Positions 45,001-48,000 of a DNA stretch of 64,000 bases are shown one piece after another. Each line of letters starts with the position of its first letter. Position 1 is the stretch's first letter. A program made the position numbers. The DNA comes from Escherichia coli. GTDB lineage: Bacteria > Pseudomonadota > Gammaproteobacteria > Enterobacterales > Enterobacteriaceae. Location of the stretch: assembly GCF_024223415.1 (NCBI RefSeq), contig NZ_CP100500.1; one strand, 5' to 3'.

Positions 45001-48000
45001 TGGTACCCCCGGTACCGGATCAGGAACCTGAGGCCTGATAACTGATAAGGGCAGGGCCACTGGCTCTGCCCTTTTGCTATTCTCACCGTAACGAATCAGC
45101 GGATACCATGATTATCAAACGCACTCCTCAAGCCGCGTCGCCTCTGGCTTCGTGGCTTTCTTATCTGGAAAACCTGCACAGTAAAACTATCGATCTCGGC
45201 CTTGAGCGCGTGAGCCAGGTCGCGGCGCGTCTTGGCGTTCTGAAACCAGCGCCATTTGTGTTTACCGTTGCGGGTACGAATGGCAAAGGCACCACCTGCC
45301 GTACGCTGGAGTCGATTCTGATGGCGGCAGGGTACAAAGTGGGCGTCTACAGTTCGCCTCATCTGGTGCGTTATACCGAGCGCGTACGTGTGCAGGGTCA
45401 GGAATTGCCGGAATCGGCCCACACCGCCTCTTTTGCGGAGATTGAATCGGCACGCGGTGATATTTCCCTGACCTATTTCGAGTACGGTACGCTGTCGGCG
45501 TTGTGGCTGTTCAAACAGGCACAACTTGACGTGGTGATTCTGGAAGTAGGGCTGGGCGGTCGTCTGGACGCAACCAATATTGTCGACGCCGATGTCGCGG
45601 TAGTAACCAGTATTGCGCTGGATCATACCGACTGGCTGGGGCCAGATCGCGAAAGTATTGGTCGCGAGAAAGCAGGCATCTTCCGCAGCGAAAAACCGGC
45701 AATTGTCGGTGAGCCGGAAATGCCTTCTACCATTGCTGATGTGGCGCAGGAAAAAGGTGCACTGTTACAACGTCGGGGCGTTGAGTGGAACTATTCCGTC
45801 ACCGATCATGACTGGACGTTTAGCGATGCTCACGGCACGCTGGAAAACCTGCCGTTGCCGCTTATCCCGCAACCGAATGCCGCAACGGCGCTGGCGGCAC
45901 TGCGTGCCAGCGGGCTGGAGGTCAGTGAAAATGCCATTCGCGACGGGATTGCCAGCGCAATTTTGCCGGGACGTTTCCAGATTGTGAGCGAGTCGCCACG
46001 CGTTATTTTTGATGTCGCGCATAATCCACATGCGGCGGAATATCTCACCGGGCGTATGAAAGCGCTACCGAAAAACGGGCGCGTGCTGGCGGTTATCGGT
46101 ATGCTACATGATAAAGATATTGCCGGAACTCTGGCCTGGTTGAAAAGCGTGGTTGATGACTGGTATTGTGCGCCACTGGAAGGGCCGCGCGGTGCCACGG
46201 CAGAACAACTGCTTGAGCATTTGGGTAACGGCAAATCATTTGATAGCGTTGCGCAGGCATGGGATGCCGCAATGGCGGACGCTAAAGCGGAAGACACCGT
46301 GCTGGTGTGTGGTTCTTTCCACACGGTCGCACATGTCATGGAAGTGATTGACGCGAGGAGAAGCGGTGGCAAGTAAGTTTCAGAATCGGTTAGTGGGCAC
46401 GATCGTGCTGGTGGCGCTGGGGGTGATTGTACTTCCAGGGCTGCTGGACGGGCAGAAAAAACATTATCAGGATGAGTTTGCGGCTATCCCGCTGGTGCCA
46501 AAAGCGGGCGATCGCGATGAGCCTGATATGATGCCAGCCGCCACCCAGGCGTTGCCGACGCAGCCGCCGGAAGGCGCAGCGGAAGAGGTGCGGGCTGGTG
46601 ATGCCGCAGCACCGTCGCTCGATCCGACCACTATTGCAGCCAATAACACCGAGTTTGAACCGGAACCTGCACCGGTCGCCCCACCGAAGCCGAAACCGGT
46701 GGAGCCGCCGAAACCGAAGGTTGAAGCACCACCTGCGCCGAAGCCAGAACCGAAGCCGGTCGTGGAAGAAAAAGCTGCACCGACGGGTAAAGCCTATGTT
46801 GTGCAACTGGGGGCGCTGAAAAATGCCGATAAAGTGAATGAGATTGTCGGTAAGCTGCGCGGTGCCGGTTATCGGGTTTATACGTCGCCATCCACGCCAG
46901 TGCAGGGTAAAATTACCCGTATTCTGGTTGGGCCAGATGCCTCGAAAGATAAGCTGAAAGGATCGCTGGGTGAGTTGAAGCAACTTTCTGGCTTAAGTGG
47001 CGTGGTAATGGGCTATACGCCGAATTAATACGGTCTTGCCTGATGCGACGCTGGCGCGTCTTATCAGGCCTACGCAGGGGTAGAACCCTAGGTCGGATAA
47101 GGCGTTTACGCCGCATCCGACAGCCGTTGCCTGATGCGACGCTGACGCGTCTTATCAGGCCTACGCAGGGGTAGAACCGTAGGTCGGATAAGGCATTCAC
47201 GCCGCATCCGACAGCCGTTGCCTGATGCGACGCTGGTGCGTCTTATCAGGCCTACGCAGGGGTAGAACCGTAGGTCGGATAAGGCGTTCACGCCGCATCC
47301 GACAGCCGTTGCCTGATGCGACGCTGGTGCGTCTTATCAGGCCTACGCAGGGGTAGAACCGTAGGTCGGATAAGGCGTTTACGCCGCATCCGACACGCAT
47401 TGCACGATGCCGCAAAGGCATAAAAAGTCGATGGCGTTGAATATTTTTTCAGCGCCATTTTTATTGATGCGCGGGAAGGAAATCCCTACGCAAACGTTTT
47501 CTTTTTCTGTTAGAATGCGCCCCGAACAGGATGACAGGGCGTAAAATCGTGGGACACATATGGTCTGGATTGATTACGCCATAATCGCGGTGATTGCTTT
47601 TTCCTCTCTGGTTAGCCTGATCCGCGGCTTTGTTCGTGAAGCGTTATCGCTGGTGACATGGGGGTGTGCTTTCTTTGTTGCCAGTCATTACTACACTTAC
47701 CTGTCAGTCTGGTTTACGGGCTTTGAAGACGAACTGGTTCGAAATGGGATTGCCATCGCGGTACTGTTTATCGCTACCCTGATCGTTGGTGCTATCGTGA
47801 ACTTCGTGATAGGCCAGCTGGTGGAGAAAACGGGGTTGTCAGGCACCGATCGGGTGCTGGGCGTCTGTTTCGGTGCGTTGCGCGGTGTGTTGATTGTTGC
47901 TGCCATTCTCTTCTTTCTCGACTCCTTTACCGGGGTGTCGAAAAGCGAAGACTGGAGCAAATCACAGCTGATCCCGCAGTTCAGTTTTATCATCAGATGG

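Follow-up and report, generated by a model that had tools for sequence, protein, structure and literature searches.

A tandem array of four repetitive extragenic palindromic (REP) pairs between dedD and cvpA of Escherichia coli, very probably a non-coding BIME-2 element

Among the bacterial interspersed mosaic elements (BIMEs), a BIME-2 consists by definition of tandemly repeated z2-y pairs that have a short S linker and are flanked by s, l and r, and a BIME-1 of one z1-y pair, present only once, whose long L linker frequently contains a site for integration host factor (IHF) (Ton-Hoang et al., PMC3333891). How many tandem BIMEs a locus carries is in general variable between strains (PMC3333891). 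The mRNA of yjdM, which lies upstream of REP325 (a BIME-2 of 12 hairpins), is stabilised by this element, and yjdN, downstream of it, is attenuated approximately 8-10-fold, in part through Rho; REP325 also yields a ladder of hairpin-ended transcripts (bioRxiv 10.64898/2026.03.23.713779). Here we describe an array of four such pairs, located between dedD and cvpA in a stretch of 64,000 nucleotides of Escherichia coli DNA (contig NZ_CP100500.1), which is referred to below as the window.

Tandem Repeats Finder reports the region 47036-47395 as one array, with a period of 91, 4.0 copies, 97% matches, 0% indels and a score of 671. In a separate repeat search the copies are in register, with successive spacings of 91, 91 and 91, and the four units differ pairwise at just 1-4 positions. 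Each 91-bp unit consists of a Z2 palindromic unit GCCTGATGCGACGCTGGCGCGTCTTATCAGGCCTAC (36 nt), a linker GCAGGGGTAGAACC (14 nt), a Y unit GTAGGTCGGATAAGGCGTTCACGCCGCATCCGACA (35 nt) and the sequence GCCGTT (6 nt). The Z2 36-mer has four matches at no more than one mismatch and the Y 35-mer has four matches (0-1 mismatch) within the array, while the number expected in shuffled sequence is 0.00 in both cases, and the array is therefore not due to chance. The first-pass annotation had described a BIME array of four 91-bp units; this is borne out by the Z2 and Y matches and by Tandem Repeats Finder, and can be stated more precisely as BIME-2. It had placed the start at 47038, which is indeed the first base of the first palindromic unit; Tandem Repeats Finder begins 2 nt earlier, the TT being part of the repeated linker.

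The palindromic units have the features expected of REP sequences, namely imperfect palindromes of 30-40 nt with a stem mismatch and a GTAG foot. Z2 has CTAC at its 3' foot, and Y is inverted relative to Z2, with GTAG at its 5' foot. The GTAG/CTAC foot is present in seven of the eight units, the exception being Y unit 1, which has CTAG. The four Z2 and four Y units alternate in inverted orientation, the copies are in tandem (4.0 x 91 bp) and variable in number between strains (0-6 in E. coli), and the array is wholly extragenic, lying between dedD (stop at 47028) and cvpA (start at 47560). Its linkers, of 14 nt and 6 nt, are short, as judged by length alone. The IHF core consensus WATCAANNNNTTR does not occur in the array on either strand, and has only two matches in the 64 kb, at 22217 and 53678. 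The array is thus a BIME-2 and not a BIME-1, because it has Z2 and Y units, short linkers and no IHF core.

When 5,426 complete E. coli genomes were searched by megablast, the window proved 100% identical to strain SCU-316, and gene coordinates were mapped from the RefSeq annotation of that strain. This annotation confirms dedD and cvpA as the flanking genes, as had been proposed; accD and folC lie upstream of dedD, and purF follows cvpA downstream of the array. A terminator scan of 46300-48200 gave a single terminator-like site, a hairpin at 47430-47459, which lies 35 nt past the last Y unit and is not derived from a REP sequence. The same scan gave no intrinsic terminator among the eight REP hairpins of the array, none of which is followed by a T-run. 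The array is upstream of this conserved terminator, and therefore lies within the 3' untranslated region (3'UTR) of dedD, before the PurR-controlled promoter of cvpA-purF. It is concluded that the element is very probably a non-coding BIME-2, composed of four Z2/Y REP pairs in the dedD 3'UTR, with a function as proposed by analogy with other REP elements. It is an allele of a catalogued BIME-2, and its class, the polymorphism in copy number, the false open reading frames (ORFs) and the proposed functions are already known from the literature.

The K-12 BIME-2 between dedD and cvpA has the same locus, the same flanks and the same Z2-14 nt-Y unit, and its unit is the same as unit 4 of the window but for one base in the Z2 loop. 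However, K-12 has one unit in an intergenic region of 258 bp, compared to four units in 531 bp in the window, and the AGCCGTT internal linkers and the three head-to-head Y-Z2 junctions occur in multi-unit alleles only and not in K-12. REP325 (between yjdM and yjdN) resembles the array in being a tandem alternation of Z2 and Y between co-oriented genes, in the 3'UTR of the upstream gene. It differs in having 12 hairpins where the array has 8, in a Y-Z2 linker that is longer by 6 nt, in its Y stem (GGCCGG...CCGGCA, compared to GGTCGG...CCGACA in the array), and in its position inside the yjdMN operon, whereas the dedD array is followed by an intrinsic terminator. BIME-1 (RIP/RIB) is also an inverted REP pair in an intergenic region, but its unit is Z1 and not Z2, its L linker is long and contains an IHF site, and only a single copy is present. 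The REPINs and other REP doublets associated with RAYT genes share with the array the inverted pair, the GTAG/CTAC feet, the stem mismatch and the motifs TGCC↓TGAT and GGCC↓TAC (here and below, arrows mark cleavage points or junctions). However, no tnpA-REP gene adjoins the array, and in Y unit 1 the GTAG needed for TnpA-REP binding is replaced by CTAG. Most other alleles have GTAG at this foot (47088), and the change appears to be specific to the haplotype of the window and SCU-316.

The coordinates of these features, and of the others discussed below, are collected in Table 1.

Table 1. Features of the dedD-cvpA region, numbered from the first base of the window
Feature	Position	Strand	Basis or remark
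dedD coding sequence, stop TAA at 47026-47028	46366..47028	+	SCU-316 RefSeq; stop read directly
9-nt spacer TACGGTCTT, dedD stop to foot of first palindromic unit	47029..47037	+	
BIME-2 array, 4 units of 91 bp, each (TT)Z2 - 14 nt - Y - GCCG	47036..47395	.	
Z2 unit 1, GCCTGATGCGACGCTGGCGCGTCTTATCAGGCCTAC, CTAC at 3' foot	47038..47073	+	0 mismatches
Y unit 1, foot CTAG in place of GTAG	47088..47122	+	1 mismatch (first base)
Z2 unit 2	47129..47164	+	Z2 36-mer match
Y unit 2	47179..47213	+	Y 35-mer match
Z2 unit 3	47220..47255	+	Z2 36-mer match
Y unit 3	47270..47304	+	Y 35-mer match
Z2 unit 4	47311..47346	+	Z2 36-mer match
Y unit 4, last, followed by unique flank CGCATTGCACGATGCC	47361..47395	+	Y 35-mer match
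Y-linker-Z2 head-to-head junction 1, naRNA4 (RF02564) match	47091..47161	+	81.3 bits (gathering score 59.5)
Y-linker-Z2 junction 2, naRNA4 match	47182..47252	+	73.5 bits
Y-linker-Z2 junction 3, naRNA4 match	47273..47343	+	79.5 bits
Spurious ORF 1, 95 aa, frame 1	46913..47200	-	
Spurious ORF 2, 61 aa, frame 2	47106..47291	-	
Spurious ORF 3, 74 aa, frame 0	47197..47421	-	
Spurious ORF 4, 56 aa	47288..47458	-	Absent from first-pass annotation
Two plus-strand ORFs	47043..47174 and 47225..47356	+	
Intrinsic-terminator-like hairpin, 12 pairs, 6-nt loop, then TTTTATT	47430..47467 (hairpin 47430-47459)	+	Terminator scan
Presumed PurR operator ACGCAAACGTTTTCTT	47488..47503	+	Position read in window
Presumed -10 hexamer TAGAAT	47511..47516	+	Position read in window
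cvpA coding sequence	47560..48048	+	SCU-316 RefSeq

On the plus strand, which is the sense strand of dedD, the region 47020-47475 has a folding energy of -234.9 kcal/mol, with z = -10.2 against dinucleotide shuffles. The stems were analysed in 25 distinct units taken from ten alleles (seven E. coli strains, a divergent E. coli lineage, one further E. coli, and E. albertii), and those scored were Z2, Y, and a small CTAC/GTAG helix inside the 14-nt linker. The Z2 stem is composed of 8+5 pairs with a C/T bulge, and the Y stem of 7+4 pairs with AA/GC internal mismatches. Standard pairs occupy 98.6% of the stem cells over the 25 units, compared to 25-45% when the partners are slid by 1-3 columns. 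Two-sided changes are seen at three pairs: in Z2, GACGC/GCGTC becomes GATGC/GCATC and also GACAC/GTGTC, and in the linker helix an A-U pair becomes G-C. These comparisons lend modest support to the idea that the hairpins of the array are maintained.

Further Y-type units are present elsewhere in the window, at 28796-28830 and 34218-34252, of which the copy at 34218 is a perfect match to the Y consensus. There is no additional Z2 unit within the 64 kb.

The number of units was surveyed by searching with the two unique flanks only, and reading the unit number from the span of the match. Three evenly spaced samples were taken from the 5,425 matching complete genomes, giving 154 distinct informative records, and the frequencies are therefore estimates. 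A single unit is found in 101 of the 154 (66%). Four units occur in 19 (12%), or about one in eight complete genomes, including O157:H7 strains and Nissle 1917, and three units in 17 (11%). There are four records with 5 units, two with 2 units (H139 and H189), one with 6 units, and four with 0 units (~3%). The remainder are degraded, namely a 68-bp remnant in 4/154 (~3%), a 147-bp form in one, and a 162-bp form in one (H141). Direct comparison of alleles gives one unit for K-12, three for strain 123 and AVS0717, four for the window and SCU-316, five for GF3-3 and six for 21AR0173. The expectation that the copy number varies between strains is thus confirmed. In MLI109, which has 0 units, the spacer is 167 bp with the junction TACGGTCTTGCC↓CGATGCC. 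In the 68-bp remnant of MINF_1A the centre of the pair is deleted, giving a fusion of Z2 and Y that forms one long hairpin, and in the 147-bp form of strain 88-3493 the first Z2 is gone, with the junction GGTC↓TACGC and both breakpoints at C↓T.

Genomes with identical flank scores differ in their count, and unit number therefore changes faster than the flanks acquire substitutions: the flank haplotype at 97.5% identity (873 bits) carries 3, 4 or 5 units, and the O157-type haplotype at 99.0% (908 bits) has 4 units in most cases and 3 in one. The copy number would change through unequal recombination or replication slippage acting on the 91-bp direct repeats, and this would be sufficient by itself. 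In strain 123 the last unit has the Z2 variant that units 3 and 4 of the window share, together with the Y variant found in unit 4, which is what the loss of one unit would produce. The REP-associated transposase TnpA-REP could also contribute, judging from the sequences at the junctions. Its cleavage sites, and its requirement for C↓T, have been described (PMC3333891). At the unit boundary, TTGCC↓TGATG contains the 'iREP I' site of TnpA-REP, TGCC↓TGAT, and in the deletion of 88-3493 the right breakpoint is the 'iREP II' site GGCC↓TAC, while the left breakpoint is also C↓T. However, the step from 1 to 0 units is accounted for equally well by microhomology, TTGCC being present on either side of the element. 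In 21AR0173 and AVS0717, whose flank identity is ~97.3-97.5%, the units within an array are far more diverged from one another, for example CCTGTGCAGG compared to CCTACGCAGG, and GCCAGCG compared to GCTGGCG; this points to older arrays in this group, with little homogenisation.

The age of the array can be approached from its linkers. E. albertii and the divergent 'E. coli E69' lineage have 2 units in the same place. The internal linker AGCCGTTGCC is common to these two and the window, and is unlike the terminal flank ACGCATTGCC of E. coli; in the window the internal linker (47123-47128) and the terminal flank (47396-47401; ACGCATTGCA/C) differ at 3 of 4 positions. Since the shared linker is unlike the terminal flank, the multi-unit array probably predates E. 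coli and is ancestral, and the common 1-unit K-12 allele would be a contraction. The same comparison suggests that the array is not a simple tandem duplication of the single K-12 unit with its flank.

At least 120 species-representative genomes, which range from Escherichia to Yersinia, Serratia, Pantoea, Erwinia and Dickeya, have an identical copy of the 29-nt block that spans the PurR box and the -10 hexamer (ACGCAAACGTTTTCTTTTTCTGTTAGAAT). When such genomes were scanned with this pattern, at least 120 loci were obtained, from Escherichia to Yersinia, Pantoea and Erwinia, and at these loci the contents of the slot (equivalent to 47029-47429 in the window) can be compared. Citrobacter species have one Y-like REP, or a pair of a Z-like and a Y-like REP, at the homologous position. 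Occupation of the slot is therefore probably older than the Escherichia-level array, and the 0-unit allele of E. coli is more likely to be a secondary loss. In Enterobacter, Lelliottia, Kluyvera, Pluralibacter, Buttiauxella and Kosakonia the slot contains palindromes of the form CCCTCACCC...CCCTCTCCC-loop-GGGAGAGGG...GGGTGAGGG, several of which are tandemly repeated. Pseudocitrobacter faecalis carries an array with a period of ~63 bp and ~7 copies. The occupants are unrelated palindromic repeat families that differ by genus. In Klebsiella, Raoultella, Pseudescherichia and Siccibacter the slot contains no more than short unique hairpins.

The outgroup spacers fold better than mononucleotide shuffles (z < -2) at 85 of 110 loci, although this is a crude control with approximate boundaries, which were placed 62 nt from the PurR box at every locus, a regular expression for the terminator having matched just 3/114 loci. 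It is conceivable, if quite improbable, that the slot is a cross-genus hotspot, in which unrelated palindromes became established independently of one another and in some cases grew into tandem arrays, with selection for a structured 3'UTR or insulator of tunable length between dedD and the purine-regulated cvpA-purF promoter. If so, copy number would act as a strain-level dial on dedD expression, on read-through or on local supercoiling. Alternatively the site is merely permissive, and tolerates junk.

Downstream of the slot, the terminator hairpin GATGGCGTTGAATATTTTTTCAGCGCCATTTTTATT is conserved almost base for base, including its loop, in Escherichia, Citrobacter, Klebsiella, Enterobacter and Pluralibacter. 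This is more than is needed for a plain terminator, and the hairpin may also serve the cvpA-purF promoter as an upstream element. In that promoter, 47488-47503 is taken to be the PurR operator and 47511-47516 to be the -10. The locus links a cell-division gene to the purine regulon. Upstream of the slot, the interior of dedD contains a 24-bp tandem repeat at 46671-46718 (2 copies, 79% matches), which codes for the proline/lysine-rich PKPxxEPPKP linker of DedD.

Possible functions of the array can be considered at the level of DNA and of RNA. Gyrase cleavage sites are over-represented in BIME-2 elements, with a preference for y units, and independently of transcription (Sutormin et al. 2018, PMC6379681). 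Table DS3 of the same work lists the orthologue in K-12/W3110 as 'BIMEs2 2437498-2437581, cvpA-dedD', and its Topo-Seq data give this orthologue 2 cleavage sites with rifampicin and ciprofloxacin (RifCfx), 1 with microcin B17, and 0 with either ciprofloxacin (Cfx) or oxolinic acid (Oxo). Binding of gyrase, which was among the roles listed in the first-pass annotation, is thus supported as cleavage in vivo of the single-unit K-12 orthologue. By analogy, the Y units would supply four transcription-independent gyrase sites on the DNA. A folC-dedD transcript that runs through the array would form eight stable stem-loops. These would block exonucleases that work from 3' to 5', and so stabilise the dedD mRNA, and they would also attenuate read-through towards cvpA-purF, partly via Rho, as in REP325. 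An effect on translation can also be envisaged. According to Liang 2015 (cited in PMC12306157), translation of the upstream gene is lowered by a REP sequence less than 16 nt past the stop codon, and the Z2 of unit 1 starts 9 nt after the dedD TAA. The supplements of PMC12306157 and PMC3333891 contain no entries for dedD or cvpA, and a literature search on dedD, REP and cvpA returned nothing relevant.

Two other roles in that list do not fit the sequence. It is the L linker of BIME-1 that binds IHF, and the IHF core is missing here. The suggestion that the REP hairpins act as intrinsic terminators is rejected, because they have no T-run and the real terminator is a separate hairpin.

Several observations weigh against a functional BIME-2. 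The K-12 orthologue is cleaved by gyrase in only 2 of the 4 drug conditions. The effects of REP sequences depend on context, and terminal REPs do not in general lengthen mRNA half-life (bioRxiv 10.64898/2026.03.23.713779). A good intrinsic terminator past the array may make an additional attenuator or stabiliser redundant, in which case the effect would be smaller than that of REP325. The K-12 Term-seq tables (Adams et al. 2021) contain no 3' end between cvpA and folC. The existence of natural 0-unit (~3%) and degraded alleles implies that the element is dispensable. Finally, the covariation is slight and the units compared are closely related, and templated repair within a palindrome could mimic it without selection.

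The first-pass annotation had noted three minus-strand ORFs in the array with near-identical translations, and had attributed them to the periodicity of the repeat. These ORFs are indeed present, together with a fourth on the minus strand and two on the plus strand. The minus-strand ORFs have in common the peptide core NALSDLRFYPCVGLIRR, with starts at 47197, 47288 and 47379, which are 91 nt apart and in frames 1, 2 and 0. The same peptide appears in three frames because 91 = 3 x 30 + 1, that is, 1 modulo 3. Each ORF follows the same repeat phase until the next unit brings a stop into frame, and ends approximately two units later. Real small proteins of repeated sequence could in principle be encoded here, as the ORFs are 56-95 codons long, and an exact look-up shows that ORF 4 (47291-47458, minus strand) has been deposited in some GenBank genomes as a protein, with the name 'ribonucleoside reductase'. 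This name is evidently a transferred and propagated misannotation. A period that is not a multiple of 3 argues against coding, as does the presence across the array of at least 4 stops in every one of the six frames. None of the six ORFs has a Pfam match at E<=1, and RefSeq/PGAP annotates no coding sequence in the dedD-cvpA spacer in any of the nine genomes inspected. The exact sequences of the three ORFs noted earlier have no match in a collection of ~15 billion predicted proteins. The ORFs are moreover gone in the 0- and 1-unit alleles, which make up ~70% of E. coli. The overlapping ORFs are artefacts of repeat periodicity and not coding, as had been suggested, and the probability that they encode proteins is negligible.

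Other explanations of the array can be weighed against a functional BIME-2. It could be a selfish or neutral passenger, a non-autonomous element spread and amplified by the REP-associated transposase and by slippage, and tolerated in a permissive 3'UTR upstream of a terminator with no local function for the host. In favour of this are the range of 0 to 6 copies, the occurrence in natural strains of degraded forms (68, 147 and 162 bp), and the different counts within one flank haplotype. The unit boundaries and two deletion breakpoints at C↓T motifs cleaved by TnpA-REP, and the unrelated repeat families in the same slot of other genera, are in keeping with this explanation, which is also compatible with weak local effects. 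It accounts less well for the maintained stems, with their few two-sided changes, or for an occupation of the slot by REPs that is apparently older than E. coli (E. albertii, Citrobacter), and comparable elements measurably affect their neighbouring genes, the K-12 orthologue being itself a gyrase cleavage site. A neutral passenger remains a reasonable explanation, although the balance is against it. A different proposal is that only the first hairpin matters, by stalling the terminating ribosome and so lowering the synthesis of DedD (the Liang-Rudd-Deutscher effect), and that the extra units are irrelevant. The distance of 9 nt from the dedD stop is suitable; it does not vary among the alleles whose first Z2 is intact, including the 68-bp remnant, and is lost in the 147-bp remnant. 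However, because the spacing is identical in all alleles that keep the first Z2, it cannot explain the variation in copy number, and the array itself is left without an explanation. We regard this proposal as unlikely.

A role in the architecture of the chromosome has also been proposed for elements of this type. On the lines of the original naRNA4 model (PMC4550694), the array would encode naRNA4-like RNAs that act with HU to bridge REP cruciforms and to condense the chromosome. The dissociation constant (Kd) of HU for naRNA4 is ~32 nM. In agreement with this model, an Rfam scan of the window finds three naRNA4 matches above the gathering score on the transcribed strand, the only other match above the gathering score being one tRNA. 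Scores are higher on the dedD-sense strand of the array than on the opposite strand, and the orientation relative to transcription is thus the same as in REP325. However, the Rfam model was derived from REP325 and spans one Y hairpin, the linker and one Z2 hairpin, so that the three matches are the internal head-to-head junctions; they re-describe the BIME-2, and are not a separate RNA gene. The array linker is also 6 nt shorter than that in the model. In addition, deletion or overexpression of REP325 had no effect on nucleoid size, and neither a stable HU-cruciform-naRNA4 complex nor HU-dependent REP-REP contacts were found (bioRxiv 10.64898/2026.03.23.713779, which shares an author with the original naRNA4 work). 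This function is therefore very unlikely. An identity as BIME-1 or as another IHF-binding site (RIP/RIB) has in its favour only the generic list of BIME functions given in the first-pass annotation. The units are Z2 and not Z1, the 14-nt linker is not a long L motif, and BIME-1 is present in single copy (PMC3333891), compared to four copies here. With WATCAANNNNTTR absent from the array on both strands, this identity is rejected, at close to certainty.

For annotation purposes the region should be labelled as a BIME-2/REP array with no coding sequence, given that at least one REP-derived ORF is present in GenBank under a false enzyme name. The polymorphism of 0-6 units constitutes a natural allelic series, in which the number of REP hairpins can be tested against mRNA stability, read-through and recruitment of gyrase. 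The array is a likely source of errors in assembly and in short-read mapping, and is a possible length marker for strain typing. Beyond correct annotation its significance is small, and only the reuse of the dedD 3'UTR slot across genera goes slightly past the routine. The tRNA gene found in the Rfam scan lies far from the array, at 11353-11424 on the minus strand.

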